DNA of 64,000 bases. It comes from Schmidtea polychroa (taxonomy: Eukaryota). The stretch lies in the NCBI GenBank assembly GCA_044892525.1, contig CM097885.1, positions 29,202,001 to 29,266,000 of the forward strand, given 5' to 3'. Numbering within the stretch: position 1 is the first letter of the stretch; each line of letters opens with the position of its first letter. A model generated the notes under the pieces. It saw only the letters and a list, made by a program, of their open reading frames with translations, was not told the origin of the DNA and searched no databases. Below, piece by piece: positions 25,476 to 46,629 of this stretch. Position numbers and translations under genes: made by a program.

Positions 25476-25589
25476 TGATATAAAATTTAATAGTTTGGGT
25501 TACAGTCCCTTGAATACTTTTACAATACTTTAATTTTTTTGTTTGGGATATACGTCCCGGTTTTTAGTTTTTCATCTTTTCATCCACCC

Positions 25590-26645: not shown

Positions 26646-26838
26646 CTCTAAATCATAGACATCGATTAATCTTTTTATTATGAAAAAGGAATTTATTCAT
26701 TATTTACTGTTTCTTGGGAAATTTTCGCATCATTTTTGGGTTTTCGTATTTATGGTTTTCATACTATTATTATATAATATTTTATTGGTTATATACACCG
26801 ATATATACAGATTATTATATACAACATTATTCGATTGG

Positions 26839-28227: not shown

Positions 28228-28312
28228 TCTATAATTATATGTACAAATAGTTCTTATCGATACAGGTTCGATATTTTATTTACAATTATTTACATTTTAA
28301 GCTAGGTTTGGT

Positions 28313-28672
28313 TTAGGGTTCGGAAGAGTCGGCTTCGTGCCCACTCTCCTCTCTATTCATTAGCCATTCCGACCAGTCTTCTATTTCTGTCTGTTCTGCT
28401 TCCTCCCTCATTCGGTCTATTTCAATTTCCTGTCGACGGCTATATTGGGTTATCCTCTCTATCTCTCTTTGCATTTGTTCGATTTTTAACCTCTGGTCTT
28501 CAATTATCTTCAAATAACTAAATCCTCTGTTCATACTCTCGATCAGGTTTCTGTGCATCGTCAGTCCTTGTTCTTGCAAATTGGACACTAATTGTGCTAA
28601 TACGGCACATTGTTGCTTCCATAATTCTTCAGTTACTGTATTGTGGTTCATTTCGTTATTTCCTTGATCCAT
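28313..28672 (-). CDS. Small accessory coiled-coil protein (about 119 aa from MDQGNN)
   Basis: Open frame immediately downstream of the polyprotein, with a TAG 2 nt before the ATG at 28672. The track start at 28696 is a TTG. Confidence 0.65.
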   Translation of the reverse strand: MDQGNNEMNHNTVTEELWKQQCAVLAQLVSNLQEQGLTMHRNLIESMNRGFSYLKIIEDQRLKIEQMQREIERITQYSRRQEIEIDRMREEAEQTEIEDWSEWLMNREESGHEADSSEP

Positions 28673-28832
28673 TCCTAATTTATATACACTTTTCAACTCT
28701 TATGTAAATTTAATTTTATTTTATGCTTCCCGTTATTGTATAATATTGATACCGCGCTTATATAGAGATATAGTACTGTTATATACATAAGATATACTTA
28801 CTTTTTACAATTATATACAGTCATATTCCTTT

Positions 28833-29837
28833 CTATATGCGTGAGTTTGGAGGGCGCTGAACGTTCCAGGCCTCCACCCACTGTCCTTGTTTGATATCAC
28901 TTGGTCGTTTCACTCGATGTTGGAAGTTTCTGATTCGGGTCATTTCTAGTTCTCCGCGATGTCGTTTATCTTTAATTATTTTTATTGTTCCCCCCGTTAT
29001 GATTAGGAATGCCCCTGTTATTATTATCCCACTGATCCACATCATCTGCTTCACGCTTATACTCTCTGGTTTTTCCTTGTTTGTTAATGTTGATATCGCT
29101 TCTGTACTTTTCTCGTTTCCTCTTTTGCCATTTCCTTTCATCATTTCCCGTATTCTTGCTATTTCCTCGTTCATACCCTCCTTTGCCATCTTTTGTATTT
29201 TTTCCATCTCTTCCTCCGAAACATAGTTGTCCTGAGCTTCCTCACCAGTTTTCTTGTGCTTTCCTCCTTCGTTCTTTTCGTCGTGGTTTTTTCTTTTCTT
29301 TCCTCTTTTCCCCGGGTATCGTCGGCATTCTCTTTTTGATTCATTCCTCCAGATACAAACCGTGTATTCTTTCGGCGGCTGCTGCTGCGTCACATATTGA
29401 TGGCATCTCTCACCTGGTCCTAATCTTGAAATACAGACTTTGTGCTCTTTTCTAGGTTGGATCTGCGTTATTACTACTTCACCACCTTTTCCTAGGTGTA
29501 CCTCTTTTCCTTTGACGTTCGTTATTCTCTTCCCGTCTCGATTTCGGTATGCTTCTTGTATTCTTACTTCTGTTATTGGTTCTGTGTCCTCATTTATCAG
29601 TACTAGTTTCTGATACGCTCTAGACATGCATCTTCCTAGTATGCACCTTTCCTTTAAGTCCCATTCTTCCTTTAAATCCCACTGCTGCTCTTGTGCTTGC
29701 TTTCTCTTTTCTTGTTTTAGTTCATCCTCTTTGCTATCTTGATTCTCCGCTTCTTTGGTTTCTTTTATCGTTCTCGTCCCTCCCTGAGCTGTTACTAACT
29801 CTATCATGGTAAGCATAATTATCATTAATATCATATT
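28833..29837 (-). other. Polyprotein domain: C-terminal type I membrane protein (internal signal peptide 29787-29837, TM about 28978-29046)
   Basis: MILMIIMLTMIELVTA|QGG is signal-peptide-like and MMWISGIIITGAFLIITGGTIKII is TM-like. The intervening region has two similar Cys motifs. Confidence 0.65.
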
Positions 29838-32800
29838 TGTCTCTATTTCTTTGTTAGTGAAAGGTAGGCATACCCTCTGTTTTCCATTATTCGATTTTTC
29901 CTCCTCTTTGGTCTTGGTTCTCGGGCTGTTTCCTTCTCTTTTCGTATCCGAATCCTTGTTTTCTGGTTTACCCTCCTCCGGTTCTCTTTTCTCTTTATCC
30001 TCCTTTCGGTCTTTTCCGTTATTGTCATCGTGTTTATCTCCCTCGCTGTCATTTAAAATGTCGTCCTCGACATTTATATCGTTCAATAATCTGCGATATG
30101 CTGTTAGCACTCTGTTTCTTGCTAATTTTGCTTCGAATTCAAACTCTTTTCTACCCGTTGCAGCATGTCTCTTTCTATTCCATTCTTTAACTAACTCTCT
30201 CAATTGCATACGACGATGTTTCCCAATTCGTTGTTGCTCGTTCTGATTTTGCGTGAATTTTAGGTCTTCTCTATTTAATACTATTAAAATAATTTTAGGC
30301 GTCCCCCCCTTAGTTAGGGTATTCTTTACCATCGCATTTTCTCCGTTTTCGTAGAATTCGTTTACATTTATCGCATATTTATTATTTGGTGGTACTCTCC
30401 AGGTTAATAATAATTTCATTGCTTCTAGATTTTTCCGTACCGTATTCCATTGAAACTGAGATGTGTTTTTGCACATATTTTCGACTTCTTCTTTTGTCGC
30501 ATTTTTGCAAATAAATCTGATCATTTCTAAGTTTGGCTGTATGGTTGCCCAGTCCAAGGTGGAATTTCCTTCATTGGACTTTTCGTCTAGTTTCGATCCT
30601 GATTGATGTAGGATGTGGAGTGTTTTTGGGTGTATTTTCGTTATAGCTGCATACATCATGGCGGTTTCACCTTGTTCATTTTTCGTGTTGGTTTCCTCGC
30701 CCATCTCTCCAAGGATTCTCACGATCGTTATTGCTCTATTTTCTTTCGCTGCTAGTATTGCTTGTTGTAGGGGTGTTCTGGAATCCTTCGTTACCATCGT
30801 AAATGCTCGAGGCAAGAAGGTTTTGATTTTCCCGATATCTAAACCCGTGGTTTGATCTCTTGCGTATGTGTGTACGGCTTTTATTATTTTGGACAATATT
30901 ATTTCGTCTGGCAGCTCTAGCATTTCCTCAAAGAACACTTCTTTTGCCTTGCGTATTATTGCCTCTTGATCTATACTCATTGATTTGGTTTCGATGACGT
31001 TGTTTGTGACCGTTTGGTTCGTTGTTGACTTTGATTCCCTGGATTTCTCATACCTTATTTTCGTTTTCTTTCCGTTTGGATTATTGATTCGTTCCTCTGC
31101 TGTAAGTATTTGGATAATATCCAGGTAATTCTCGCGGATGTTATTCATTGTGTCCATCATATATAACACACTTACCGTTTCCCAATATTTATTCCGTACT
31201 TGGTTAGTAAATTGGAATAGTGATTTTTCGAATGTGTCGATTCGCTTTTTTGTTAACTGTTCGTCTTTGTGATTTGTGAATTTTATCCCTCGTTCTAGTA
31301 ATTGATTCGGGATTTCGAATAAATGATGTCCTTTCATAGCTTCTCTCATCAGCGTGTTCTCTCCTCTCGTGAACGCTTCGTTTACGTTGATCATATAATC
31401 GTTTCGAATTGGATCTCTCCATGTAATTAATATTCCGGTAATTGTCGTCAGTTTTTCTTTGATCGCTGTTAACAATCCATCATACATGTTTCCGACTTCC
31501 CGATTGTCCTCATATGATAGTAGTTCCATCAATGACGTGAACGCCTCGGTACTTCTCCCTTCGATAGCATGGTGTAGAGCGTTTTTCCGCTCGTGGTCTT
31601 GTGTGGTTATTTTCGATCCGGTATCGAGTAATGCGGTTATAATGTCTTTTGTTTTGCCTCTGTTTGCGGCTATCATTAATGGTGTGTAACCTTGGTTGTT
31701 TGTTTGTTCTGTTGATCGCTTGCAGTCGTGAAATGCTTCTATTGTTTCTAGTATTTGCTCGTTGTTACCTACTTTCATGAGTTTGTGTAATGGTGTGTCT
31801 TCGTAATGATCTGTTATTGTAAATAATATTGGCCATTGGCTTTTGACTACTCGCAATAATGGGTGTGTCCTTTCTCTATTTGCATAGTTCTCGATCATCG
31901 TCAATAATCCTCCTAATATTTCGAAATCTAATCGATCTTTTGCCCATCCAGGTATTTTAATTTTTACCTCTTTTACAATCTTTTCCGCTTCTGATGGTTG
32001 GATACCTAATCGTCCAGTGATCGGTTCTGCGAGTTGTTGCATCATGTTCATTCGGTAGGTTTGCGAACGTGTGGTTAATGTACGGCCTTCTGGTTGACTA
32101 GTGGCTGTTTTTGGAATTGATTTGCATCGTGCCACGTTTACGTATATTGGTCTGGTAAAGGGGTTATTTACCAATTTCACTCTTACATTAGTTTCGCCTA
32201 CGAATAAGATCTCATATGGTCCTTTTCCGTTGCGTTGTAACTTTTTTGTGGTTCCTGGAATTAATTCCGGGGTTTCTATCATTACCCAATCACCTGTTTG
32301 GAACGTATGTTGCTTCACGTTTTTCTTTCGATCGTGTAAATCTTTATAACTTTCCTGGTAGAACTTGATATTTAATCCCGCAGTTTCCCAAATTTCTTGC
32401 ATTCTTTCCTTGAATTTCGTAACATAATCATCGATCTCCATATACTGCGATATCGGTGGTTGGTATTCCAGGTCCATTGGCATATTACATTCTCTTCCGT
32501 ACATTAATTTGAATGGGCTCATTTTCGTTGATGCGTGAATCGACATTCTGTACGCCATAAGACATAGGTTTATATATTCGTCCCAATCTCGTTGGTGACG
32601 GTCAACGTAGTTTGATAACATTTGTATAAGTGTTCCATTAAATCTTTCCGTCATCCCATTGGTTTGAGGGTGGTATGGAGATGTTCTTAGTTTTGCTATT
32701 TTGAAGTAATTTGTTACTTCGCTCATTATCTCACTCATAAAATTTGTTCCCTGATCGGTTAAGATTTGTTTTGGTGTTCCATATCGGCAACATATCTCTT

Positions 32801-35800
32801 CTACCAAAATTTTTGCGATTGTTTTAGCTTTTTGGTCTGGCATCGCGAATGCTTCTGGGAATTTCGTAAGAAAGTCTGTGATCACCAGAATGTAAACGTT
32901 TCCTTTATCTGACTCTGGTAGTGGACCAACTACGTCCATGGATATCATTGTCATTGGTTCTATTGGTACTGGCATTGGCGTTAAAGGTGCTTTCCATTTC
33001 GATCCCGTATTCTTCCTGGTTGCACAAGTTAGACAATTTTTTACCCATTCGGTTACATCTTCCGTTAACGTAGGCCAAAAATATTTCTGTTTCATTCTTG
33101 CTAACGTCTTTTTCGATGACATATGTCCTCCCAATCTCCCATCGTGATATTGCGTTAGTAACTCTTTTCGTCGGTTTTCCGGTATACACATTAATCGTTT
33201 TTCCCCATCCATTATCAGCAACCAATCTTTCTCTATAATATATCGGTGTCGGTGTTTATCCATATGTTCTTTTAATTTTTGGTCTTTCGCATATACATCT
33301 GTCTTTCCGGTTTTTACATAATCGATAATTTGTTTTAATTCCGCGTCCTCTTGTTGGTCCTTTCGTAATTGACAGAAATCCAAATCTTCCGCTACTATTA
33401 AGCATATGCGTTGCATTTCTGAATCCACCAAATCTGGGAAAATAAATCTTGACATACAATCGGCGTTGGCATTTGCTCTTCCCGCTTTGAATTTTATAAA
33501 TGGGGAGTATTCTTGCAATTGCATGGCCCATCGCATCAGTCTACTGGACGCTTCTTTATGTTGCCCTAACCACACTAATGGTTGATGATCCGTGGTTATG
33601 CATATCTCATGTCCCCATAGTAAATATCGGAAGTGTTTGATAGCTTGTATTATAGCCAATGCTTCTCGTTCTGTTACCGAATAGTTCTTTTCGTGCTTTT
33701 TGAATGTTCGACTGTAATACCCGATTACTCTCTCTTTTCCCTCATCGTCTAATTGTCCCAGAATCGCGCCTGCCGCGTACCCGCTTGCATCCGTTGCCAA
33801 TAGAAATGGCTTCTTAAAATCTGGGTGTACGAGGATAGGTGCTTCGATTAGTTTATCTCTCAGCGTTTCGAACGCCTGTTGTTGTTCTTTTTCCCAAATG
33901 AACGAAATATCCTTCTTTACTAATTCCTGGATTGGTTTTGCAATTCCTGCATAATTTTTGATAAATTTGCGATAGTATCCGCATAATCCTAGAAATTCCT
34001 GAACTTGGGTGACAGTTTTCGGTGCTGGACATGTTTTTATTTTCTCAATGTTTCTTGGATCTGGCTCCTTTCCTTTAGCTGACACTATGTGTCCTAAAAA
34101 CGTGACTTTTTCCTTTGCCCAATCGCATTTTGATGGTTTGAGTTTGAGTTTCCACTGTCTTAATCTAATAAATACGTTTCGGATATCTTCTAGATGTTGT
34201 TCAAATGTCGCTGAATAGATTAGTAAATCATCAATATATACCATACATTGTTTGATTCCATGGGTGACAAAGTTCATACACCGTTGAAATGATGCTGGTG
34301 CGTTAGTCAGTCCAAATGGCATTTTCCTGAATTGATATAGATCTCGTCCCAACGTGAAAGCTGTTTTCTCTTTGTCCTCATCTTTGACTTTAATCTGCCA
34401 GTATCCACTTTTTAGATCTAAAGAAGTAAAATATGCTGCCCCTTGCAACATCAATAACATCTCATTGATGTCCGGCAATGGATAGGTATCTCTCTTGGTC
34501 ACTGCGTTTAACTTCCGATAATCGATACAGAATCGTTGGGTGCCATCTTTCTTTTTTACCATGACCACTGGGAATTGCCAAGGTGAGCAACTTGGTTCGA
34601 TTACTTTTGCGTCTAGCATCTTTTGTACTTCTGTTTCGGCTATTTCTTTCTGCATTTCTGCTAGCTTGTATGGTCTCAATGCAATTGGGGTTTCGTCTAT
34701 GAGTGGTATTGCATGTAAGGTAACATCACATGTACCCAAGTCTAAATCTGAGATGGCGAATATATCTTTATATTCTACCAACAATCGGTGCAATTTTTTC
34801 TTTTCGTCATTCGTCAACAACATACTATCTATTGTCCATAATTCATCATCTTTGATCATCTCGTTGGTCACTTTCGGTAATTCTATGTCCATCATTGGGG
34901 TCAATCTTCCCAATTTTTCGTTCTCATAAATGATTTTGTCTTCCTCTTCGAAATTCGTGATGTTGAGCGGTATCACTCCTTCTTGGTTTATTGTGATTAT
35001 TTCTCTCGCGAGTGGTAATTCTCGTCGCTTTTCGAATGACTTGCTTGGTTCAAAGATAACTTCTCCTTCCATACCCGTATCCACTTTTATCTGACAAATC
35101 ATCTGCGATTTTGCTGGTACTATTATTTTTTCTGGACATCTGATGACTGCATTCATTTTGCATATTCTACCGGTTTTGTCTTTTAAACACATGGTTGTTA
35201 AGTCAATTACGACTTCCTTTAACAATTCTGGCATCAAATCCGTTCCGATTATGCATGGTACGCTAAGTTTTGGTATTACTGCCAAATACGTTTCAATTTC
35301 GTTGTCCTGGTATCTCAATGTAGTCCACCATCTTCCGACCACGTCCACTGTTTCTTTACTACATGCTATAATGTGAATTGTTGTTGATTCGATATCCTTC
35401 CAGTGTTTACTGGGGATTTGATTAATCGCTATCGCTGATACATTAGCTCCGGTGTCTATCATAGCATTGGTTTCTTTACCATTGATTTGAATCATAACTG
35501 TTACTGCTGGACCTCCAGGTAAACTCATCGCTGCTATTGTTCTTACGTCATCTGCTTGATCTACACTTTTGGTACGTCGTGTTGGCATATAATGCATACC
35601 GGGTTGACTCGGTAATTGCGGATACATATTTTGTGTCATGGTCAAAGCTGTTTGTGGTCCCACGATATCCGGTGGTATATAGCTTCCATTGGCGATCCAG
35701 GTGTTTGTCTTTTCCTTTTCCCAATATGGTGCCGTTTCCATTGGTTTTTCGTTTGGGTTTCTGTTTGGATAAAGACATTTATCGTTCCCGTTATCATCGT

Positions 35801-38800
35801 CGTCACTATCGCTGTTAGATGATTGGCTTCTAAATCGGTCCAAGAATTTTGGCTTATTCTTTTTCAATTGTCGTCTTGTTGCTTCATCGTACATTACTTT
35901 CCGGAATCGTCTGCCTACTTCCTCGTCGGTTCCTTTAATCTTTGTTAATATTTTAATCAATCGCTTTATCCGATGAATGTCTTTTGAGTGGCCATGTAAT
36001 ACCATGGTCTTAGCTAAAAATGGTAAGAAGCCTACTATCATTTTCCAATTAACTTTCTTTTCCCGCTTGTATATATCGAAACAAGCTAACATTTGTGTTA
36101 GTATTACTCTGACTATCTGAATTATGAGTATGATCCCTAATATCCCGGCCATCATTTGTCCAAAAACTAAGAATCTTCCCCACATTGCTTTCATCATGTT
36201 TGACGTAGCTTGTTGAAAATGGTCTGGCGATAATAGCAGCTCGTAATTCGGGCCTGATTGATAGTTTGTGCCCCCAGTTATTGTTACCATATTAGACAAA
36301 ATGGATTCTCGTCTGGCTGGAAAGAGTACGTTAAGTCGTGCTGTTTCTAGATCTTCCGGGGAATACATACCACCGTTTGACACGTCTATAGGTTTGAAAT
36401 CCAGCTCTGTGGCGAGTTCTATTAATCCAAATTTCTTGGGCTCCTCGGATATGGTTTTTCCCGGTAACATCATCCATTTCCCATCGGGCCTTTCATATAA
36501 AGGTCCGTATGCATTAGAACAGTTAAAGAGATTTGGGTAGAAACCCACTGGATTCATAATTCTAGTGACTGGTTGGACGAATCGATTTTGTCCTTTATAA
36601 CGGATTTCTAATTCATTTGCACATCTCTTTTCGGGTAGTATGGATTTTTCTGGCATTCGTGCATACGTCTTGGTACACTGGTATGTGTACATCACTTCTC
36701 CTACCATTCTACCAAAGTGTCCATCTGGTAATGGGAGTGATGGCATCGTGTTATCTGGGTGCGTTATCGCAATAGCTAGCTTTGTTTTCAATATTTCTTT
36801 ATTCAATGAACAATCGTTTTGTATCAGATCGTAATATACTTTTTGCAAGGTCGTTTGTCCACGATGAAATAGAAAATCCATTTTATTATTTGCATATAAG
36901 TATAGTTTTACGTCCTCCGTTGCTATCTTTCCCACTGCTCTATCGATTATTTGTCTCGACATATAGATGCCTGCGTAATTGGTTTTATATACTATACTGT
37001 CACATTTGGTGGTTTCTTTCTCTTTGATAAACCTCATACCTAGATCTGGATCGTCTGTGATTAATGCTGTTGGTGTCTTCTGCGTTGAAAGTCTCTTTTC
37101 TCTGGGAGATGGTGGCATTGGTTTTCCATTTCGCATCCTCACTCTGTCGTTTCCATCCTCGTCGTTCTCGTTCTCATATATTTCTCCTTTTACTTCATTG
37201 AACAAAGCACTTTTTAACAGTTGGAGTCGGCATTTTTGGGTATTAGCTTCATAGATTATAGTTGATACTCCTGTCCTACATACGTTTTCTGTAGCTCTAC
37301 ACGCTGGGTTGGTCTTCATTTGGTAATTATTTGCGTCAAATTGCGCTTCGTATTCTTTTAATTCGACCGTGTAAGACTCGATCACTACAACTCCCGATAT
37401 TACCTCGCCTCGGATCGTATACGTACCTCCGTTACATGACCCATCTGATGATTTTACTTTTCCGGATACGTAAACACTTTCGGTTTTAATCATTCCAGTT
37501 TGTCCGTGAATTGTCACTCCGTTATGCATTTTTAGCGCTCCGGTTCTAAATAGCTCTTTACAATCCTCTCGTTGTATTGATACGATTTCTTTATCCAGAC
37601 CGGGTAGTATAAGAGTCGAATACGAATATTGTCCACAGTAATATGCGAGTACCTTTTTTGATACTACGCATTCCCTTGCTTGCGTTCTGATGAAATCTGA
37701 TTCTTGATATACATGGTAAGTAACTTTTGTTCTCACGATGTCCAATTTGTTGGGTGAGGCTTGTCTGCATTCTTCTATGTCTCTCAATGAGTATTTATCT
37801 CTCATTATCATGTTATCACAATCGTAGATGGTGAAACCTGTTGCTCCACTTGTGCACAACATCCATATCATCATAGTCATCATTAACGAATTTATTGATG
37901 CTTTTCTGCTTGCGGGATCTTTCATCGGTAGTTCCCATTCTAGTTCATTTAACAATTTTTTCAATCTAACTTGCATCGACCTTTCTTGCTCATTTTTCCG
38001 TGGCGCTTGTATCAGTCTTTTCCATCCTCCTGCACGAATAATGTGTGGTTCAATAGTATTCTCTATGATTGAAACGGTCATTTCTACATGATTTGCAAAC
38101 TGTTTATTTGGTATTTTCCTCGCAGCTAGTCCCATCAAATTATACATCAAATAAGTGATTACCACTAGGTGATGCTCGTCATCATTTGCATTTGTCGTGA
38201 GCTGCTCAATCACTCTCTTTGTTTCGTCCCAATCCGTTTTGGTGGTTTTCGTTTTCTCTTTGATTAACTTTGGGATTATCCCCGAAATGGTGTGCCATAA
38301 TTGTCTAGCTTCCGTACTGGCTACTTTCCGTTGCCACAAACGTCTAAGTTGTGGGTTTGTTATTATTAACATATCTTTTAACAATTCTCGTATCCATTTT
38401 TCTCCTCTTTCGATCGTTGGTTGGGCTTCCTTTAGATCCCATACTATTTTATCCAATTTTTCTAATCGAACTTGCCCTTGTTCTTGCTTTAATTGTTCTT
38501 TGGTTTTGAACTCAGACTTTTCTCCTTGTTTCTTGGGTCTTCCTTTTGCCCGTTTTTCCATCATCGTTCCTGCTTCTCTGGTATTTTCGTAATTCGGATT
38601 TCTTTCGTTATCCGTTCTGGGTAATGAGCTATCGTTATTTCTTAGCCACTCATTCCATTCGTCTATTATTTTGTCGGTTTGACTTTCTGGTGTTACTTTC
38701 GTTGGTTCTCTTTGCTTCTGGAATTGTTCATCCGTTTCGGTTTCCGTAGTATTGTCGATGATTTCTTTGATGTTTAGTTTCGTGGGTTGTTGATAACTCG

Positions 38801-41800
38801 TTGATGGCTGGTTGTTAGTCCACATTTCGGCTCCTGTCGGCCATCTTACTAATAGCGGTGATCTTTCTCCTGATTCATCGTCACTATCTTCCAGGATTAT
38901 CTCTTCAACTTCTTCAGTTTCATTAGATTTACTTGGTGCTTTGTTCGGACTTGGAGTACTCAAGCTGCCTTTTGTTGGTTTAATTATTTTACTTTTCCTT
39001 TTTAACGGTTTTCCCAACGTTTCTGCCATTGTTAATACATTTGTCTCTTCCAATCTCATGGGGGTTATCCCGACGTCTGCATTATCGTCTAGTGATTTTC
39101 CGAACAGTTGCAGATGGAATGGAGTTTCATATGCTAATTTCTTTTTTAATTCTCTAATTTTTGTTGTTGGATGCACCTCTAGTTCCTCGATGCTCTTGTC
39201 TGGATACTTGATTCGGATGTGATACCCCTCCTGGGTGTCTTGTGCCCATTCCTGATTTCTCCATTTTCGAATAATTTGTTCTAGCTGTTCTGGATACCAT
39301 TCATTATATTGCCGGTATTCCTCTATTGCCTTTGCCATTCCTCTCAGATTGTGGATGTCCTCTGATGTCTTTAAGATGATGTTAGCCAACGCTACTACTT
39401 GGCGTCTTTGATTTTTCGCTCCCATTGCTAAGATATCGCCTAATTGTTTATATCTTTCTTTCTCTTCTCGTTCTCTTGCTTCCGTCGCTTCCTCGCCGTC
39501 CATATCAGCATATTCACGTTCCTTTTTCCTCATTGCATGAATATGTCTCGCTTCATTTTCGCTTTCTGATGTGACATCCGTCTCGCCTTCGTCATCTGAT
39601 GTCTGTTCCCTTGCTTCCTCTTCATATTTTGGAGGTTCCTCTTCTTCTTCCTCCGATTCACTTTCTGTCTCACCAATGTCTGTTTCCACGAAGGTTCCTT
39701 TCCGGATTTCCCATTCCTTACTTTCTGCATTCCACACTCTTTCCCATGGGGTTCGTCTGCAGGATCTGGTGCTTAATTTCGTGATTTTTCCTTGTAGTTC
39801 TTTTTCTTTTAACCATTGTTGGTGGATTTTAATTATTTCCGTAGATTTTTGATATAACGTTTTCATCCGGTCTCGTATTTCTTTTTGATAGGTTACATCT
39901 CTTGTTCGAAATTCATCCATTGGTACTATCCTGATTATCTGGTGATTGTCCCACATACCCATTTCGCTTAACGAGGTGTCGTCCTCCGCTCGTAATATTA
40001 TCTTATCGTACATCATGACTACATCATCCACCATACCATCACTACTTTCGCTACGTACCTTTTCCGTTATCTCTTGGTTTATTTTTGATACCAAGTCATC
40101 TACTGTACTCTGATTGCTCATTTTTATTCGTCGTTTTTCTTCGTTCGGTAACCATATGGTTATTTCCAACCTCTGTGGCTGGGTTTCTTTTAACCTTCCA
40201 TATTTGTGGATCAAATTTATGGTTCTCCAATCACTCATTCGGAGCATTTCTGTATCTCGCAACCGGCTCATTAGTTCGTACATGGCTGGGGCTCGTCTGG
40301 TGATGAGTAAATCCCAGTTGTCTTCTACTTGTTCTTGAATTTGTTTGATCAGCTTATCCAGGTTTCGTCTCAGAGTACATTGTTTTATTTGTTCTAATTT
40401 CAATTTGATATTAAAATCATATTCTGCCTTGGCATCTTTAGCCCAATCGTAAAGGTTGGCTGGTTGTTTTTCTTTATGCAACTTCAGTATTTGCGTTTCT
40501 CCTGGCCATATTAGTGCATCTACTAAGTGCATATCTGGTTTGATCTGTTCTCCTTGGTATTGATACAGATATTCTTTCTTTCTCGAACTTCCCAAATGCT
40601 CTCGTATCCAATCGAAAAGTTCGTCGGTGACTGTATTTTTTATCCACATTCTTTCAAGTCCTCTACTCGTTCCGATTTTTATTACATACCGCGTGGTATC
40701 GGCCTGCTTCATTTTTTCCATATAATTTTTTATAATTGATTTTTCCTCGTTTGGTATTAGATCTTTCTCGTTTCTTTCCAATTTCATCACTTTTTGCACG
40801 AATCGCCTGAATGGTATTACGTCGATGAACTCTTGGTTCCTCACTACTACTGGGAGTATTTCGGCTACCTGTTTTATCGCTTCCTCCCTTGCTTTTCTCA
40901 ACTTTATTTCGATATCTTCGTCTTCACTTTCACTGGTTATCTCGTTTCCGCTTTCTTCCTCTTTGATTTCCCCTTTTGGGGGTTCGCTTATTTCATTCGG
41001 CTGTAGTATTTCTCCACCCAAACTACTTACATAATCTTCTTCTTCGTCTGACGATGCTACATCTTTTGTCCTTTTCATCATATTGATTTGCAAGTTTCTC
41101 ATCCTTGGTACTCTCTTTAGTTTCTTTCTTTCGAATATTGTTGTTTCTTCCGATTCTGATTCTTGTAGCATTCGGTGGTTTAGTTGACTGGTTTGTTCCT
41201 TGCTCTTGTTATTTTCATCTTCTGTCTCGGTTTTCGCTTTATTATGTTCTTTTTCGATTTTATCCTTTATCTTTTTCCAGAATATTTTCTGAATTCTCTG
41301 GTTTCCTTTTAAAATCGTGGTTGAATTCTCTGTTTTCATTTCCGTTGTTATTTCTTTTACCTTTTCTGGTTCAGTCATGGGTACTACCCTTGGGCTTTTC
41401 CCGTAATTGTAGCAATACTGGCTCTTCATGTCTTTTACTAACCTCATCATATTTATTCGCAATGGTTGTTCTTGTCGTTGTTGGTTGCGTTCTTGTTTTA
41501 TCCTCTCTTCCTCGGCCTGTAGCCTTTGCCATTCTTGTACATGTTGATGCACTTCATAATTGTTGAGATTTTCGGTACTCCTCATCATACGTATATTCTG
41601 GGTTTGTTGTGGTGCTGATTCTTGTCTTGGTCTCATCATTTGCTGCATCATCTGTTTCATCTGCGAAATTTCCTGCATAACGTTCATTTGTTTTCCTTCG
41701 TTAGGGTTACTTTGTCGTTGCGGATTCGCTATATAATTATTATTTCGCTGTGGTGGTCGTTGTTGTTGGCCCCTTTCTCGGCAATCTCTGGAGATGTGAC

Positions 41801-42686
41801 CTGGCTGACCACAGTTAAAACAGCCTCGCAATTGGCATACATTTTCGGTATGTCCACGCCGTCCGCAACGATTACAATTTGAATTTCTATAACAATCTCT
41901 GTCCCAGTGTCCTGGTTTACCGCATGTTCGGCACTGCTTGTTATCGTTCATATTTCGCCGATTATTGAAATTGTTCTCATTATTCGGGTTGTTACGATTA
42001 CCATTATTCCCGTTTGATCGTCCTTGTGGTGGTTTGAAAATTTGGTGCGCTCCTGGTATAAATTGATTCATTTTCGGTTCTTGATTGTTGTTATCTCCGT
42101 TATCCGCTTTCGCTATTGCTGTCGCTATCCTTCCCTCCTCTTGCATAATATTCATTTGAGCTGGAAGGTGGAGCTCGCATCTTGTAGCCCAATCTATGGC
42201 TTCCTCTAATGTTTTGCACATTTGACAACCTACTGAGGCTCTTACTTCTTCTCGGCGTAATCCCTCTATGAAATAACCGATCAGATTTTCTTCGGGTAAT
42301 TTTCCATTCATTGCTTTCTTCGCTAATCTCCGCAATTCACTGGCATATAATGTTATCGATTCGTTTGCTCTTTGTTTCCTATTTGCTAGTTCGCCCAACG
42401 CCTGGTTGATTGGCTTACTGGCTCCGAAGGTTTTCTTCAGGAATGTTTTAATATCTTCCCACTTTTCTAATTTCGTGTCTCTCTCTTTAGCTTCTAAATA
42501 TACCTCTAATGCACTATCGCACAAAAACAACGGCATCCTTTTACTAATTGCTTCGGGTGTCCATCCACACACAGTGATATAGACTTCAAAATTAGTTATG
42601 AACGTTGCTAGCTTGTTTGCATTTCCGTTGAACGGTTCTCCTCTGAACTTCTCTTTATACTCGTCGGTTTTTACGACATTCGTCAT
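28833..42686 (-). CDS. 4,617-aa Gag-Env-Pol polyprotein with cargo domains
   Basis: One uninterrupted ORF containing capsid, three CCHC knuckles, a glycoprotein, the DTG protease motif, the YIDD RT motif, RNase H, an HHCC/DDE integrase with GPY motif, and ankyrin repeats. Confidence 0.97.
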   Translation of the reverse strand: MTNVVKTDEYKEKFRGEPFNGNANKLATFITNFEVYITVCGWTPEAISKRMPLFLCDSALEVYLEAKERDTKLEKWEDIKTFLKKTFGASKPINQALGELANRKQRANESITLYASELRRLAKKAMNGKLPEENLIGYFIEGLRREEVRASVGCQMCKTLEEAIDWATRCELHLPAQMNIMQEEGRIATAIAKADNGDNNNQEPKMNQFIPGAHQIFKPPQGRSNGNNGNRNNPNNENNFNNRRNMNDNKQCRTCGKPGHWDRDCYRNSNCNRCGRRGHTENVCQLRGCFNCGQPGHISRDCRERGQQQRPPQRNNNYIANPQRQSNPNEGKQMNVMQEISQMKQMMQQMMRPRQESAPQQTQNIRMMRSTENLNNYEVHQHVQEWQRLQAEEERIKQERNQQRQEQPLRINMMRLVKDMKSQYCYNYGKSPRVVPMTEPEKVKEITTEMKTENSTTILKGNQRIQKIFWKKIKDKIEKEHNKAKTETEDENNKSKEQTSQLNHRMLQESESEETTIFERKKLKRVPRMRNLQINMMKRTKDVASSDEEEDYVSSLGGEILQPNEISEPPKGEIKEEESGNEITSESEDEDIEIKLRKAREEAIKQVAEILPVVVRNQEFIDVIPFRRFVQKVMKLERNEKDLIPNEEKSIIKNYMEKMKQADTTRYVIKIGTSRGLERMWIKNTVTDELFDWIREHLGSSRKKEYLYQYQGEQIKPDMHLVDALIWPGETQILKLHKEKQPANLYDWAKDAKAEYDFNIKLKLEQIKQCTLRRNLDKLIKQIQEQVEDNWDLLITRRAPAMYELMSRLRDTEMLRMSDWRTINLIHKYGRLKETQPQRLEITIWLPNEEKRRIKMSNQSTVDDLVSKINQEITEKVRSESSDGMVDDVVMMYDKIILRAEDDTSLSEMGMWDNHQIIRIVPMDEFRTRDVTYQKEIRDRMKTLYQKSTEIIKIHQQWLKEKELQGKITKLSTRSCRRTPWERVWNAESKEWEIRKGTFVETDIGETESESEEEEEEPPKYEEEAREQTSDDEGETDVTSESENEARHIHAMRKKEREYADMDGEEATEAREREEKERYKQLGDILAMGAKNQRRQVVALANIILKTSEDIHNLRGMAKAIEEYRQYNEWYPEQLEQIIRKWRNQEWAQDTQEGYHIRIKYPDKSIEELEVHPTTKIRELKKKLAYETPFHLQLFGKSLDDNADVGITPMRLEETNVLTMAETLGKPLKRKSKIIKPTKGSLSTPSPNKAPSKSNETEEVEEIILEDSDDESGERSPLLVRWPTGAEMWTNNQPSTSYQQPTKLNIKEIIDNTTETETDEQFQKQREPTKVTPESQTDKIIDEWNEWLRNNDSSLPRTDNERNPNYENTREAGTMMEKRAKGRPKKQGEKSEFKTKEQLKQEQGQVRLEKLDKIVWDLKEAQPTIERGEKWIRELLKDMLIITNPQLRRLWQRKVASTEARQLWHTISGIIPKLIKEKTKTTKTDWDETKRVIEQLTTNANDDEHHLVVITYLMYNLMGLAARKIPNKQFANHVEMTVSIIENTIEPHIIRAGGWKRLIQAPRKNEQERSMQVRLKKLLNELEWELPMKDPASRKASINSLMMTMMIWMLCTSGATGFTIYDCDNMIMRDKYSLRDIEECRQASPNKLDIVRTKVTYHVYQESDFIRTQARECVVSKKVLAYYCGQYSYSTLILPGLDKEIVSIQREDCKELFRTGALKMHNGVTIHGQTGMIKTESVYVSGKVKSSDGSCNGGTYTIRGEVISGVVVIESYTVELKEYEAQFDANNYQMKTNPACRATENVCRTGVSTIIYEANTQKCRLQLLKSALFNEVKGEIYENENDEDGNDRVRMRNGKPMPPSPREKRLSTQKTPTALITDDPDLGMRFIKEKETTKCDSIVYKTNYAGIYMSRQIIDRAVGKIATEDVKLYLYANNKMDFLFHRGQTTLQKVYYDLIQNDCSLNKEILKTKLAIAITHPDNTMPSLPLPDGHFGRMVGEVMYTYQCTKTYARMPEKSILPEKRCANELEIRYKGQNRFVQPVTRIMNPVGFYPNLFNCSNAYGPLYERPDGKWMMLPGKTISEEPKKFGLIELATELDFKPIDVSNGGMYSPEDLETARLNVLFPARRESILSNMVTITGGTNYQSGPNYELLLSPDHFQQATSNMMKAMWGRFLVFGQMMAGILGIILIIQIVRVILTQMLACFDIYKREKKVNWKMIVGFLPFLAKTMVLHGHSKDIHRIKRLIKILTKIKGTDEEVGRRFRKVMYDEATRRQLKKNKPKFLDRFRSQSSNSDSDDDDNGNDKCLYPNRNPNEKPMETAPYWEKEKTNTWIANGSYIPPDIVGPQTALTMTQNMYPQLPSQPGMHYMPTRRTKSVDQADDVRTIAAMSLPGGPAVTVMIQINGKETNAMIDTGANVSAIAINQIPSKHWKDIESTTIHIIACSKETVDVVGRWWTTLRYQDNEIETYLAVIPKLSVPCIIGTDLMPELLKEVVIDLTTMCLKDKTGRICKMNAVIRCPEKIIVPAKSQMICQIKVDTGMEGEVIFEPSKSFEKRRELPLAREIITINQEGVIPLNITNFEEEDKIIYENEKLGRLTPMMDIELPKVTNEMIKDDELWTIDSMLLTNDEKKKLHRLLVEYKDIFAISDLDLGTCDVTLHAIPLIDETPIALRPYKLAEMQKEIAETEVQKMLDAKVIEPSCSPWQFPVVMVKKKDGTQRFCIDYRKLNAVTKRDTYPLPDINEMLLMLQGAAYFTSLDLKSGYWQIKVKDEDKEKTAFTLGRDLYQFRKMPFGLTNAPASFQRCMNFVTHGIKQCMVYIDDLLIYSATFEQHLEDIRNVFIRLRQWKLKLKPSKCDWAKEKVTFLGHIVSAKGKEPDPRNIEKIKTCPAPKTVTQVQEFLGLCGYYRKFIKNYAGIAKPIQELVKKDISFIWEKEQQQAFETLRDKLIEAPILVHPDFKKPFLLATDASGYAAGAILGQLDDEGKERVIGYYSRTFKKHEKNYSVTEREALAIIQAIKHFRYLLWGHEICITTDHQPLVWLGQHKEASSRLMRWAMQLQEYSPFIKFKAGRANANADCMSRFIFPDLVDSEMQRICLIVAEDLDFCQLRKDQQEDAELKQIIDYVKTGKTDVYAKDQKLKEHMDKHRHRYIIEKDWLLIMDGEKRLMCIPENRRKELLTQYHDGRLGGHMSSKKTLARMKQKYFWPTLTEDVTEWVKNCLTCATRKNTGSKWKAPLTPMPVPIEPMTMISMDVVGPLPESDKGNVYILVITDFLTKFPEAFAMPDQKAKTIAKILVEEICCRYGTPKQILTDQGTNFMSEIMSEVTNYFKIAKLRTSPYHPQTNGMTERFNGTLIQMLSNYVDRHQRDWDEYINLCLMAYRMSIHASTKMSPFKLMYGRECNMPMDLEYQPPISQYMEIDDYVTKFKERMQEIWETAGLNIKFYQESYKDLHDRKKNVKQHTFQTGDWVMIETPELIPGTTKKLQRNGKGPYEILFVGETNVRVKLVNNPFTRPIYVNVARCKSIPKTATSQPEGRTLTTRSQTYRMNMMQQLAEPITGRLGIQPSEAEKIVKEVKIKIPGWAKDRLDFEILGGLLTMIENYANRERTHPLLRVVKSQWPILFTITDHYEDTPLHKLMKVGNNEQILETIEAFHDCKRSTEQTNNQGYTPLMIAANRGKTKDIITALLDTGSKITTQDHERKNALHHAIEGRSTEAFTSLMELLSYEDNREVGNMYDGLLTAIKEKLTTITGILITWRDPIRNDYMINVNEAFTRGENTLMREAMKGHHLFEIPNQLLERGIKFTNHKDEQLTKKRIDTFEKSLFQFTNQVRNKYWETVSVLYMMDTMNNIRENYLDIIQILTAEERINNPNGKKTKIRYEKSRESKSTTNQTVTNNVIETKSMSIDQEAIIRKAKEVFFEEMLELPDEIILSKIIKAVHTYARDQTTGLDIGKIKTFLPRAFTMVTKDSRTPLQQAILAAKENRAITIVRILGEMGEETNTKNEQGETAMMYAAITKIHPKTLHILHQSGSKLDEKSNEGNSTLDWATIQPNLEMIRFICKNATKEEVENMCKNTSQFQWNTVRKNLEAMKLLLTWRVPPNNKYAINVNEFYENGENAMVKNTLTKGGTPKIILIVLNREDLKFTQNQNEQQRIGKHRRMQLRELVKEWNRKRHAATGRKEFEFEAKLARNRVLTAYRRLLNDINVEDDILNDSEGDKHDDNNGKDRKEDKEKREPEEGKPENKDSDTKREGNSPRTKTKEEEKSNNGKQRVCLPFTNKEIETNMILMIIMLTMIELVTAQGGTRTIKETKEAENQDSKEDELKQEKRKQAQEQQWDLKEEWDLKERCILGRCMSRAYQKLVLINEDTEPITEVRIQEAYRNRDGKRITNVKGKEVHLGKGGEVVITQIQPRKEHKVCISRLGPGERCHQYVTQQQPPKEYTVCIWRNESKRECRRYPGKRGKKRKNHDEKNEGGKHKKTGEEAQDNYVSEEEMEKIQKMAKEGMNEEIARIREMMKGNGKRGNEKSTEAISTLTNKEKPESISVKQMMWISGIIITGAFLIITGGTIKIIKDKRHRGELEMTRIRNFQHRVKRPSDIKQGQWVEAWNVQRPPNSRI
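30250..31950 (-). other. Polyprotein domain: two tandem ankyrin-repeat modules after integrase
   Basis: EDTPLHKLM, GYTPLMIAA, KNALHHAI (module 1) and SRTPLQQAI, GETAMMYAA, GNSTLDWAT (module 2). Both end with INVNE..GEN...KFT. Confidence 0.9.
32110..33200 (-). other. Polyprotein domain: integrase (HHCC, DDE core, GPY motif)
   Basis: YHDGRLGGH...CLTC; ISMDVVGP; LTDQGTNF; PYHPQTNGMTERFN; KGPYEI. Confidence 0.97.
33480..34700 (-). other. Polyprotein domains: reverse transcriptase and RNase H
   Basis: RFCIDYRKLN, LDLKSGYWQI, MPFGLTNAPASFQR, YIDD (34227-34238), FLGH. RNase H motifs LATDASGYAAGAIL, EREALAI and TDHQPL. Confidence 0.98.
35200..35500 (-). other. Polyprotein domain: aspartic protease
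   Basis: AMIDTGANVSAI (DTG at 35448-35456) and IIGTDLM. Confidence 0.95.
35985..37886 (-). other. Polyprotein domain: envelope glycoprotein resembling chuvirus G (class III-type), with internal signal peptide 37836-37886
   Basis: Signal LMMTMMIWMLCTSGATG then FTIYDC...YSLRDIEEC...YYCG and a Cys-rich ectodomain. C-terminal WGRFLVFGQMMAGILGIILII TM followed by a second hydrophobic stretch. The pattern recalls chuvirus-type glycoproteins (recognition from memory, no search run). Confidence 0.8.
38007..38470 (-). other. Polyprotein domain: divergent Bcl-2-like fold
   Basis: BH2-like TIEPHIIRAGGWKRLI. Spacing from VIEQL to GGW is 64 aa, against 63 aa from VVNEL to GGW in Bcl-xL. The NWGR motif is replaced by DDEHH. 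Confidence 0.7.
39027..40694 (-). other. Polyprotein domains: three ubiquitin-like domains (40476-40694, 39921-40172, 39027-39224) and a possible CARD-like helical segment (40191-40400)
   Basis: Each unit of about 70-85 aa shows the beta-grasp pattern, e.g. YHIRIKYPDKSIEELEVHPTTKIRELKKKL...LQLFGKSLDDN. TLRRNLDKLIKQI..VEDNWDLLI resembles the first CARD helices (weak). Confidence 0.6.
41781..42686 (-). other. Polyprotein domain: Gag capsid and three CCHC zinc knuckles (41781-41933)
   Basis: Retrotrans_gag-like QRANESITLYASELRRLA...FIEGL; knuckles CRTCGKPGHWDRDC, CNRCGRRGHTENVC and CFNCGQPGHISRDC. Confidence 0.95.
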
Positions 42687-43952
42687 GATTGGTGTTCTAG
42701 GTTCGTCTGTTTCTTTTAAATTGTCTAACGATGTGACTAAACTTTGGGCTGATAATTCCTCGGTTGACGTTGCTAAACTATTAGTGATATCGGACAGACT
42801 TTCTCTACTTCGAGATCGACTAGGGGTATATCCGAGATTTTCTTGGTCAAATATGGGTACTTGATTGGTTCTTCTGGATCCTTGTGATATTCCTCTTTGA
42901 TGTTTAATGGATCGTCCTCTTTTGAGTTGTTGTAATTCGTCTCCTGAAAATAATACGTCTCCTGGCTTACTAGAAGATCTAAGATTGGGTTTATCCGTGA
43001 TTCCTTTCTTACGCTTCTTGGTAATTAGCGGCTATTGAATCGGACGCGTTCGGTTCTGATTGTGTTTCTAATTCTTGGCAGATGGCTGCTAATACTTCTT
43101 CCGTTCTGGAGTCTTCCGGTCGCTGTGTCTCTCGGTGCGGGTTCTGAATGGATTTATCCTTGGTTGATTGTCGATTTTCTTCGAATTCCTTTTGTGCAGG
43201 TTCTGGATTGTCTTGGTTGGCTGGATTGGCTTGATATCTAAAATGAAAAAATGATCTCGTGTTGCATTTGCTTACACGACTTCATCATTCTTTCTACAAC
43301 ATTCAAAAACAGACACCTTTTAGGTTTCTGTTTGTGCTTCCCCTATCTTTTGTGAAATCCTGTCTGCGGTTTATAATATCCCATCAGCCCGTATTTTCCG
43401 TCGATTTTAAATTATCTATATGGGGTAGTAACAATTATCTATAAAGTCGTAATAATTATCTATTCGTTATCAATTATAGTAAAAATAGGTCGTTGTCGGT
43501 CTCTGCTTATTACCCCCCTTTCATTTTCCTAATCCTTTTGCGCTGTTGTCGCTATTTTACTTTTCATATTCACTATTATTACGCTCGGTTCTACTCTGGA
43601 ACCAATAAAATGCATTTTTCCCGGTTTAACCCAAAAAAAAAAAAAAATATTCCGTAGAGTTTCTCTACTTCACTGGGATCCCTTTAATTAGTTAGTTACT
43701 TTCCTCTTTACTCATTATCATCATTTCATCTATTCTTTATTTTCTATTATCTCTTTAATTCGTTTCCTTCTTCCCTTTCCTTTTTCATTATAATCTTATT
43801 TTCTTTTCCACGAGCTCGTTTATTCCCTCTCTAAACTCTAATTTTCAAAATTACATTCAATTTGTTCTAGCTAGCTTTAATATTCCATATCACTAGTAAT
43901 TTAAATATTATCTCATTGTAGCTTAACTGCTATCTCTCGCTTTTCTAGGCCT

Positions 43953-44692
43953 TTACGACTGGCTGGCACTATTCAACAGCTCAATCTTCTTCCTTCTGAT
44001 CGGTTGGACTATTCAACAACTCGATCTTACGACTGGCTGGCACTATTCAACAGCTCAATCTTCCTCCTTCCTGATCGGTTGGACTTTTCACAACTCGACC
44101 TTACGACTGGCTGGCACTATTCAACAGCTCAATCTTCCTCCTTCCTGATCGGTTGGACTTTTCACAACCCGACCTTACGACTGGCTGGCACTATTCAACA
44201 GCTCAATCTTCTTCCTTCTGATCGGTTGGACTATTCAACAACTCGATCTTACGACTGGCTGGCACTATTCAACAGCTCAATCTTCCTCCTTCTTGATCGG
44301 TTGGACTTTTCACAACTCGACCTTACGACTGGCTGGCACTATTCAACAGCTCAATCTTCCTCCTTCTTGATCGGTTGGACTTTTCACAACTCGACCTTAC
44401 GACTGGCTGGCACTATTCAACAGCTCAATCTTCCTCCTTCTTGATCGGTTGGACTTTTCACAACTCGACCTTACGACTGGCTGGCACTATTCAACAGCTC
44501 AATCTTCCTCCTTCTTGATCGGTTGGACTTTTCACAACTCGACCTTACGACTGGCTGGCACTATTCAACAGCTCAATCTTCCTCCTTCCTGATCGGTTGG
44601 ACTTTTCACAACTCGACCTTACGACTGGCTGGCACTATTCAACAGCTCAGTCTTCCTCCTTGACCGGCTGGATTATTCGACAGCTCGGCTTC
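43953..44692. repeat. Tandem array of about 10 x 74-bp units in the element leader
   Basis: TTACGACTGG recurs at 43953, 44027, 44101, 44175, 44249, 44323, 44397, 44471, 44545 and 44619. The last unit is degenerate. Confidence 0.97.
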
Positions 44693-45267
44693 AATATTCC
44701 TCGCTCTGCATGCTTCTATTTCTCTTTTCTTCTTTTACTCTAGTTTACCATTTTCTCTGTCTACTTTTAATTTGTCGACTTAATCTTTACCGCTTGGGAG
44801 TGTTTCCCCTTTCCCCCCTTGCTCAAAACGCACGACGATCGCGATGATCCATTTCTACATTGGCATGGTGATCAGTCATGTCGCAAAAACTTCTCATCAT
44901 ATGCGATGGTACCCCGCCCTACGCTTCTTACTTGGGTTGATCAGTTATCCCCTCCCAACGGGTTCTTGCAATAAGACGTACCGCCCGAAGGTGGCTCGGT
45001 TTGTACCCCTGCAGTCTATATTGGGACTAATTCCACGTTATTCAACCCTCTCTTCATTTGATTCCGAAGAAAAAGAATAAAACAAAACAAACACGCAAAT
45101 ATTCATTCGTCATGCAAATTTTATTAGTCCTAATCATCAAAACTTTTTAAAGACGAATTTATTTATCATAAACATAAAGATTGAATCATTAACAGTACGT
45201 GTTACTTCAACAATTTCATGCATTCTTGTTCAAACATCGTATACTTGCTGTTACATCGCCGGCCGTT

Positions 45268-45753
45268 TCATTCGCCATAATAGACCATATGGGTCTCTTT
45301 TATTTCATATTTGCACATCGTGCATCTTTTTAGGTCTTTTACACACTCTTCACAGTGACTGAGGTGTCCACACGGTAAGAATAATACGCGAATAGGACGG
45401 AGTTTGCAGGCTATACAAGTTCGTAATTGGTTAACTTTTTCCTGTATTTTTTGTTCGATTGCATCTGGTATTGTATTTAGTGAGTCTTTTAGACGCTGAT
45501 AATCTAGATTTAATGTTGGGTGGTTCAATCTCTCTTGATACCACTGATATACGGTTTCGGGGTTTATTTTTCCATCTGGGCGACTTAGGCCTGTGGCTAA
45601 TATCATATGATTAGGTACGACTGGTGTTTGTCCGATTGCTTGTAGTAATATCGCGTTGATTTTTTCTCTTTTATGCGTCAGTGTTGTTAGGGAGTCGTTT
45701 TCTATATCGATAAACTTGAGCAGTTGTTGCATTTGGTTCGCGAATTCTGTCAT
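45268..45753 (-). CDS. 161-aa protein with an IAP-type C-terminal RING (no BIR domain), upstream of gag
   Basis: EQKIQEKVNQLRTCIACKLRPIRVLFLPCGHLSHCEECVKDLKRCTMCKYEI matches the IAP RING pattern. Strong acceptor TTACTTTTCCAACAG|CT-ATG, and AATAAA at 45120-45125 followed by a GT/T-rich tract. Confidence 0.85.
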   Translation of the reverse strand: MTEFANQMQQLLKFIDIENDSLTTLTHKREKINAILLQAIGQTPVVPNHMILATGLSRPDGKINPETVYQWYQERLNHPTLNLDYQRLKDSLNTIPDAIEQKIQEKVNQLRTCIACKLRPIRVLFLPCGHLSHCEECVKDLKRCTMCKYEIKETHMVYYGE

Positions 45754-46070
45754 AGCTGTTGGAAAAGTAATGTTTTAATAATATGTAGTAAATTAATAGT
45801 TAATTCGTTAATTGGTTTCTTTAACCATTGTTAATTATTTAATTTGACTACTTTATCTCCTTTATTTATATATATCCTTAATTTTTCTATTATCTACATT
45901 TTGCTTTTCTCTACTTAGTTCCTAATATAATTTAATAATCAATAGTCAATTTGCATTCGTCAAGCAATGGTCGGTCGAAAACAGAAAATCGATGTGATAA
46001 ATCCCTTTAATTTTTTATGAAAATCCCGGTGAATTTCGCATTCGTTAATAGAAATTTCAATCGACTGTAG

Positions 46071-46088
46071 ATCCCGGCTGAGCCCCCA
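46071..46088 (-). promoter_or_regulatory. Primer-binding site complementary to the 3' end of tRNA-Pro
   Basis: TGGGGGCTCAGCCGGGAT, 16/18 identical to the MLV tRNA-Pro PBS (TGGGGGCTCGTCCGGGAT), located 7 nt inside the 5' LTR boundary. Confidence 0.9.
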
Positions 46089-46629
46089 AAAATCATGTTG
46101 GGGTTACACCTCGGCTGACCACTCTACCATGTTGACGGGTCTAAGGGTTGATTGTCCATCTCGAATAAAAGGTGCCACCGATTTGTCAACCTGGAGTGAA
46201 ACCCCACATAACTTTCTTCCAACATAGTGCCCGTGAATCACTTCACGTTGGTACTGCACTATGCAGGCGAGACGCCAGCAAGCAGGTGAGCTTCTGCCTT
46301 AAAACTACTCCTTGCTGAGGCCTCGACTTCCCATTCACGACTGCCGATAGAAGGGCTTACGTCCATTTCCTTACACAACCGCTTATCGGGATTCGCTGAA
46401 TGCAAATTGGGAATTTCTCACTAGATCTTGCGGGTTCTCTACTCGACCCACTTAATTAAAGTCTAATTATTCATGAACGAAGACGTGTAAGACAACAAGA
46501 TTTATTAATTTCAATGTTATGACACAAGGATTCAGCTGTACACTTTACTAACGTTTGTCGAAAGAAGAGAAAACATCATAATCAACATAGATCGGATCCT
46601 TGTTCCTCATCCTGACCGCCACTGGGATT

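Follow-up and report, generated by a model that had tools for sequence, protein, structure and literature searches.

The window, by which we mean the whole 64,000-nucleotide stretch of DNA that was analysed, contains a complete Burro-type LTR element on the reverse strand, the parts of which are listed in Table 1. The absence of any mismatch between the two LTRs, together with the CCGG target duplication, indicates that the insertion is recent. The probable primer-binding site is one that we take to resemble a tRNA-Pro site. The 4,732-codon frame encodes, in order, Gag, an accessory region, a Bcl-2-like domain, Env, protease, reverse transcriptase, RNase H and integrase (PR-RT-RH-IN), ankyrin repeats and a second membrane protein. 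In an own-genome search, 150 of 970 candidates were scored, all of them 94-100% identical, and 24 of the best 39 rows, the window copy among them, lay in a frame of 4,732 codons.

Table 1. Features of the Burro-type element, in window coordinates
Feature	Position	Strand	Evidence or remark
Whole Burro-type Ty3/gypsy LTR element	19916..49964	-	30,049 bp; TG...CA ends; 4-bp target-site duplication CCGG
5' LTR	46096..49964	-	3,869 bp; zero mismatches vs 3' LTR
Probable primer-binding site	46071..46088	-	read from sequence
Single 4,732-codon frame	28833..43031	-	first Met at 42686
Gag core and CCHC zinc knuckles (aa 167-418)	41778..42533	-	PF03732 E 3.2e-9; PF00098 E 8.5e-10
Ubiquitin-like domain	39027..39248	-	PF00240 E 0.0035, below cut-off; ends at candidate protease site VLTM|A
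Basic KGRPKK motif	38529..38546	-	read from sequence
Predicted Bcl-2-fold domain (aa 1520-1679)	37995..38474	-	profiles, Pfam, predicted structure, selection
BH1-equivalent stretch LTTNANDDEHHLVVI, without NWGR	38157..38201	-	alignment, sequence
BH2-like motif EPHIIRAGGW (aa 1661-1670)	38022..38051	-	alignment, sequence
Polar linker	37911..38000	-	no protease-site rule match
Internal signal peptide 1 (aa 1708-1732), proposed tail anchor	37836..37910	-	basic n-region, 11-residue Met-rich core, A-x-G at -3/-1
Env ectodomain, gB/class III type (aa 1733-2287)	36171..37835	-	PF24664 E 5.8e-70; 14 Cys; furin-like REKR at aa 1977
Env transmembrane helix	36099..36170	-	hydrophobicity
Protease, reverse transcriptase, RNase H, integrase, gypsy order	32040..35525	-	PF00077, PF00078, PF17917, PF17921, PF00665
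Ankyrin repeats	30513..31763	-	PF12796 E 2.6e-17
Internal signal peptide 2	29787..29834	-	hydrophobicity
C-terminal transmembrane helix, second unnamed membrane protein	28989..29045	-	hydrophobicity
Accessory ORF, TRAF-like (RING plus MATH)	26839..28275	-	PF21355 E 1.7e-27; RING E 9.1e-5
3' LTR	19916..23784	-	3,869 bp

Several parts of the element were less readily assigned. For the ubiquitin-like domain, Atlas rows of ubiquitin families at 0.88-0.89 were taken as a lead only. The KGRPKK motif is, we assume, AT-hook-like; GRP in a basic context lies 154-173 residues ahead of the BH2 Trp in element families A, B and F and is absent from families C, D and E (family A being that of the window). 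After integrase and the ankyrin repeats, positions 28989-29834 (-) encode signal peptide 2 and the C-terminal membrane protein, a layout common to all six families and to the related polyprotein P0002. This protein is possibly a second envelope or receptor-binding protein; the part between signal 2 and the transmembrane helix gave only a weak thionin row in Pfam (E 0.053). Five accessory ORFs lie between the polyprotein and the 3' LTR (24014-28699 (-)), one of them TRAF-like and the other four with weak Pfam matches only. A 264-codon open frame without a good family match is found within each LTR (20450-21244 and 46630-47424 (-)), and the 5' leader carries a tandem array with 74-bp spacing (43879-44692).

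The earlier note had placed a Bcl-2-like domain at 38007-38470. Frame 1 of the forward strand is closed there; the reverse strand is open, as part of the frame running from 43031 to 28833 (residues ~1521-1675). The BH2-like motif that it named is present at 38051-38022 (-), and its reading that NWGR is lost from BH1 also holds, as no NWGR occurs at the BH1 position (38201-38157). NWGR at BH1 is the motif of the canonical pro-survival Bcl-2/Bcl-xL subgroup, whose members bind BH3 motifs and block Bak/Bax. It is present in the PDB Bcl-2/Bcl-xL chains matched by the element profile and absent from 14/14 alignment rows from the six families, and because of this absence we class the domain as Bcl-2-fold and not as a Bcl-xL-type member. 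An almost residue-for-residue match to Bcl-xL had also been claimed. The spacing agrees well, the BH1 Leu and BH2 Trp being 59 residues apart (L1611 to W1670) vs 58 in a PDB Bcl-xL chain by hand count, but the identity does not: 6 of the 10 BH2 residues equal those of Bcl-xL, the first BH2 Trp is replaced by His, and the structure-based identity to Bcl-2-family chains is 5-18%. Conservation of GGW in sibling elements, which had been proposed as a test, was found in 5/6 families for this W-x5-GGW-type BH2; family F has KFW, and the last Trp is invariant in 14/14 rows. The absence of NWGR from all six families and of GGW from family F makes canonical BH3 binding doubtful.

Taken alone, the window domain gave little signal. 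It matched Pfam PF00452 at E 0.027 and 15.4 bits, under the curated cut-off of 31.4, and the best sister family reached 29.0 bits, still under that value. Single-sequence searches returned no match in the PDB at E<=10 and none among 1.84 billion representatives, the best Atlas match was 0.76 with none at 0.9, and a profile (A1) found no match among 7,999 scored longer proteins, which is weak evidence. The domain rises above chance through its sister families. Pfam Bcl-2 was the best family for all five domains scanned (E 1.6e-6 to 0.027, all below cut-off), and two element-only profiles built from the six families retrieved Bcl-2/Bcl-xL from the PDB in 60/60 listed rows, out of 149 and 123 matched, with best E values of 5.5e-4 and 4.4e-4, the latter to Bcl-xL.

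Structure prediction followed the same pattern. The single-sequence model had a pLDDT of 45 and no Foldseek match at E<=0.001, and the model from a 14-sequence element-only alignment had eight helices and a modest pLDDT of 58. Proteins of the Bcl-2 family fold as bundles in which as many as eight helices surround a hydrophobic helix 5. With the latter model, Foldseek listed Bcl-2-family entries in 41/41 rows (prob 0.85-1.00), none of these 41 at E<=0.001. In VIA-align, the Bcl-2 family took ranks 1-25 of the 50 listed (Z 10.5 to 6.7), led by BAK (Z 10.5, rmsd 3.0 over 127 residues); the first unrelated row had Z 6.4 and vaccinia A52 was among the fold matches at Z 5.7, on a scale where Z <13 may be common for helical bundles. 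The unanimity of the structure rows and the independent sequence signal make a chance likeness unlikely, and we consider it almost certain, from models and profiles together, that the domain has a Bcl-2 fold. The fold test set by the earlier note, run here with Foldseek and VIA-align, returned a Bcl-2-like fold and not an unrelated one.

Own-genome searches in which the top candidates were scored yielded at least six element families, A to F. In the Bcl-2-like domain, families B-F are 15-23% identical to A, which is too low for a tree, and the domain lies directly ahead of Env in 6/6 families. In this domain, the window copy and a subfamily copy (L108) share 94% identity, with dN/dS ~0.02 at a near-saturated dS of ~2.5; four other within-family pairs gave dN/dS of 0.12-0.47. 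dS was saturated for A/A2 and between families, two partner copies have stops outside the domain, and the family A pair has a one-codon offset at the Env start. By these codon comparisons, the Bcl-2-like domain is under purifying selection. Neighbouring regions are also constrained, which suggests a maintained protein and not a special role of the domain, and the frame stays open and selected across the linker.

The element profile was also run against 281 frames taken from 13 further Bcl-2 loci in the genome. The best was L042 (32.9 bits), an apparent host gene without NWGR, followed by L053 (22.4 bits), a Polinton-borne gene. These scores hint that the domain was captured from some divergent Bcl-2 lineage of flatworms, and we claim no donor. 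The Polinton/Maverick Bcl-2 genes and L042 are of the same non-NWGR type as the window domain. They are stand-alone genes, and the Polinton ones end in a short hydrophobic tail of their own, unlike the window domain.

The layout of the element is that of known transposons. Burro, or GYPSM1, elements are giant gypsy-like LTR retrotransposons of planarians, as described in passages of PMC6431247 that cite Jurka 2007 and Grohme et al. 2018. According to the same passages, a BCL2-like motif noted by Grohme et al. 2018 lies directly upstream of env in Burro-2, -3 and -4, env stands between this motif and the protease in the polyprotein, and meddling of Burro with host apoptosis is "worthy of experimental confirmation". 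Compared by described layout, the window element resembles Burro in its size (~30 kb), its one polyprotein near 4,700-5,100 aa, its Gag with CCHC knuckles, its gypsy-order pol, the in-frame succession of ubiquitin-like, BCL2-like and env parts ahead of PR, its ankyrin repeats and its MATH/TRAF cargo. The TRAF-like part differs in place: in the window it has an ORF of its own, located downstream of the polyprotein, whereas MATH is inside ORF1 in Burro1 and in an upstream ORF in the Dugesia element. BIR and dUTPase-like domains have been published for Burro elements from HHpred; Pfam matched no BIR domain in the 12 stretches scanned and no dUTPase-like domain among the ORFs scanned, each a subset of the element ORFs. 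A nematode gag-env-pro-pol element, the first identity considered, was ruled out by the Burro literature match and by the TRAF, ankyrin and Bcl-2 cargo.

Because of this match, the novelty claimed by the earlier note, which knew of no Bcl-2 fold in an LTR polyprotein, fails: the BCL2-like motif of Burro is already in print (PMC6431247). A Bcl-2 domain in an LTR polyprotein has been reported, and the present result is mainly confirmation. Beyond that it supplies structural support, evidence of purifying selection, a comparison across six families and a concrete topology with four membrane segments. The word signal peptide has no occurrence in the Burro passages of PMC6431247, and passages of PMC11410931 name Burro once. 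GAG-ENV-POL elements with a gB-type Env have been described in flatworms in PMC13524379, the main text of which has no occurrence of "bcl" or "burro"; as there described, they resemble the window element in having Env between gag and pol and a gB-type ectodomain with a signal peptide or TM on one side and a TM on the other. Viral Bcl-2 proteins (BHRF1, KsBcl-2, A179L, CNP058, M11L and F1L) share with the window domain the fold and a low identity to cellular members. They are encoded by separate genes, and many have a C-terminal anchor of their own according to passages of PMC7022251, whereas the window domain lies within a polyprotein and has the Env signal as its sole anchor candidate.

We examined that signal by the n/h/c rule. 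By this rule, signal peptide 1 has the features of a cleavable signal, namely a basic n-region, a short hydrophobic core and small residues at -3/-1. Its n-region begins 38 residues, and its hydrophobic core 46 residues, past the BH2 Trp, in agreement with the ~40 aa given by the earlier note. A tripartite signal is present in 6/6 families, with 27-52 residues between the BH2 Trp and the hydrophobic core; the n-region is basic in five of the six, and the -3/-1 residues are small or neutral in all. Three stand-alone Bcl-2 proteins of the same genome have tails that start 19-30 residues past BH2 and are not more hydrophobic than the element signals. Conservation is higher in signal 1 than in the Bcl-2 domain in 8/8 pairs, and higher than in signal 2 in 5/6 pairs; the pairs are non-independent and span 23 residues, and the signal-2 comparison leaves out family F vs L132 (no alignment) and D vs L134.

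Scored position-free with Hessa-scale values, the four best membrane-insertion segments of the polyprotein are signal 1 (aa 1716), the Env TM (2293), the second signal (4400) and the C-terminal TM (4664). Signal 1, which comes earliest in the chain, has the weakest score of the four, and the hydrophobic Bcl-2 helix 5 ranks just below it. A second internal signal follows integrase in every family (five by threshold, D by alignment), which counts against the anchor reading. The alternating order of the four segments would make Env luminal, and Gag, the Bcl-2 domain and Pol cytosolic. The topology argument of the earlier note, that a signalase cut leaves the Bcl-2 domain on the cytosolic ER face, is coherent with the n/h/c reading and the segment order. 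The relative P0002 (3,865 aa, from an ENA record), which has a Gag-Env-Pol layout and three protease-like DTG motifs, carries the same internal signal and no detectable Bcl-2 domain, so that the signal needs no explanation beyond Env targeting.

The domain borders of the polyprotein share a recurring hydrophobic tetrapeptide, which probably marks the protease sites of the element. The matrices drawn from it rest on inferred domain borders and form a rough model, in which the RH/IN border falls to rank 804-859 when left out. The candidate upstream site VLTM|A (aa 1332-1336) ranks 16 of 4,727 as a training site and 64 when left out, and VLTM at aa 1332 is the nearest upstream rule match in family A. 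None of the six polar linkers matched the rule, which is weak evidence given that no more than 2.7 matches were expected, and the rule was drawn from inferred borders; in family D, a rule-fitting VLTI closes helix 8, immediately beyond the scored linker. At the start of signal 1, family A has a weak protease-like INSL|M (rank 78 and 100 of 4,727) and the other five families have no match. Inside signal 1, family A has a strong protease-like MTMM (rank 9 and 15 of 4,727).

At the level of sequence comparison and modelling, these data establish that the domain is homologous to Bcl-2, shares its fold and is under purifying selection, that its place in the order of parts is constant across the six families, and that four membrane segments alternate, beginning with signal peptide 1. 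As the best overall explanation we propose, with evenly balanced confidence, a captured Bcl-2 domain anchored through the Env signal. The diverged Bcl-2-fold domain would be an accessory part of the Burro polyprotein and the last cytosolic domain ahead of Env. Signal peptide 1 would enter the ER translocon with its N-terminus cytosolic, signal peptidase would cut after Gly1732, and the cut peptide would tether everything upstream to the cytosolic ER face, at least temporarily; taken jointly, ER entry, this cut and a tether at birth are probable. The element protease would cut upstream at VLTM|A (aa 1335), a step we slightly favour, giving a protein of ~400 residues with a disordered N-terminus, the Bcl-2 domain and the tail. 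A predicted product with such defined ends makes the question of Burro and apoptosis directly testable. A mechanistic precedent is described in the relevant passages of PMC7601889, where the signal of the next glycoprotein anchors an upstream cytosolic protein, flavivirus anchored capsid or HCV core, after the signal peptidase cut. The mechanism there is alike and the proteins are unrelated, and the anchor is removed afterwards (PMC7601889).

During particle production by the element, the protein may protect the host cell from death by engaging Bcl-2-family or stress proteins of the host at the ER, via a surface other than NWGR. Host-cell survival is the most likely purpose because of the fold and the TRAF-like/ankyrin company, and our confidence that it is achieved through such ER engagement falls just short of even. 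Modelled in complex with a Bak-like BH3 stretch of the host (L136), with the alignment input unused, the domain scored 0.01, a result that speaks neither for nor against binding. Most Bcl-2 proteins have tail anchors and the mitochondrial membrane is their central site, some members being also at the ER, as stated in passages of PMC7022251; an anchor inserted via signal 1 would start at the ER and not at the mitochondrion. That signal peptide 1 stays as a lasting, working anchor we regard as possible and lean mildly against. If it does last, it would be a signal peptide with a second job, which would explain a Bcl-2 domain working from the middle of a polyprotein. The fuller proposal, in which one peptide serves as Env signal and lasting Bcl-2 tail anchor so that each Env entering the ER leaves behind an ER-bound death or stress suppressor, is put forward more tentatively still. 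On our analysis, a signal peptide with this dual use is plausible but unproven; as a refinement it is sound and can be tested, and it has a known mechanistic precedent. If true, protection would be coupled to glycoprotein load in a retroelement still spreading in a planarian-like genome. This idea was not found in the open literature, most subscription papers and the Grohme supplements lying outside the reach of the search.

The main competing account, which we judge unlikely though a serious contender, is that the tether is temporary: the signal would hold the precursor until signal peptide peptidase or the element protease removes it, as with HCV core and flavivirus capsid, and the mature Bcl-2 domain would be soluble, perhaps nuclear via the basic GRP motif, or packed into particles. 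For this account speak the short core of the signal and the Gly, Ser, Cys and Asn near it, a composition that favours intramembrane cleavage. The protease-like tetrapeptides at and inside the family A signal and the presence of the same signal without Bcl-2 in P0002 point in the same direction, as do the precedents, in both of which the anchor is later removed by a viral protease or signal peptide peptidase (PMC7601889, in the passages concerned). However, the protease rule is unmatched in 6/6 polar linkers and at the signal start in 5/6 families, and signal 1 is unusually conserved. Also against it, Bcl-xL activity drops on TM deletion and many viral Bcl-2 proteins need membranes (passages of PMC7022251).

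The domain could instead be a signalling decoy and not a BH3 trap. Poxvirus A52/N1-type Bcl-2-fold proteins are such decoys. Acting with the TRAF-like and ankyrin cargo of the same element, a decoy would be compatible with the presence or the absence of an anchor, and it would account for the loss of NWGR in 6/6 families and of GGW in one; the A52 fold match also speaks for it. The best fold and sequence matches are nevertheless BH3-binding members (BAK, KsBcl-2, Bcl-xL and BHRF1), and L042, the closest in sequence among the tested Bcl-2 genes of the genome, also lacks NWGR, so that the loss may be inherited. We rate this role a little lower than the temporary tether.

Improbable is the view that most Env comes from an RNA, spliced or internally initiated, that starts at a Met just ahead of the signal, which would then be N-terminal and unjoined to Bcl-2. 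Families A and B do have a Met ~30 residues ahead of the cut, and in D, E and F a Met stands at the signal start or close to it, but family C has none ahead of the core and P0002 has none in the segment. The frame is open and selected through the linker, and gag-env-pol in one frame is a described layout (PMC6431247 and PMC13524379, in the passages on these elements). Weakest and largely refuted is a chance likeness of GGW to BH2 in an otherwise ordinary helical bundle. Although the window domain alone is sub-threshold, its single-sequence model matchless and its Atlas search empty at 0.9, the profile, Pfam and two structure searches single out Bcl-2 and a previous published annotation agrees (PMC6431247, Burro passages).

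Other observations concern Bcl-2 genes elsewhere in the genome and the surroundings of the element. Stand-alone Bcl-2 genes with their own hydrophobic tails are carried by Polinton/Maverick-type elements (L101/L102 at G000:C1:15391001-15411000, L098, L105, L046, L049 and L053), which were typed by their protein-primed polymerase, integrase and A32-type ATPase. One type of Polinton Bcl-2 gene apparently has an intron, and a TBP-like ORF (PF00352, E 2e-14) adjoins a Polinton Bcl-2 gene. Seven near-identical copies of an NWGR-type Bcl-2 gene (L031-L037) lie within ~0.9 Mb at G000:C4:89.9-90.8 Mb. In the window, outside the element, a hAT-type transposase ORF is found at 54258-55982 (-) (PF05699, E 1.9e-13).
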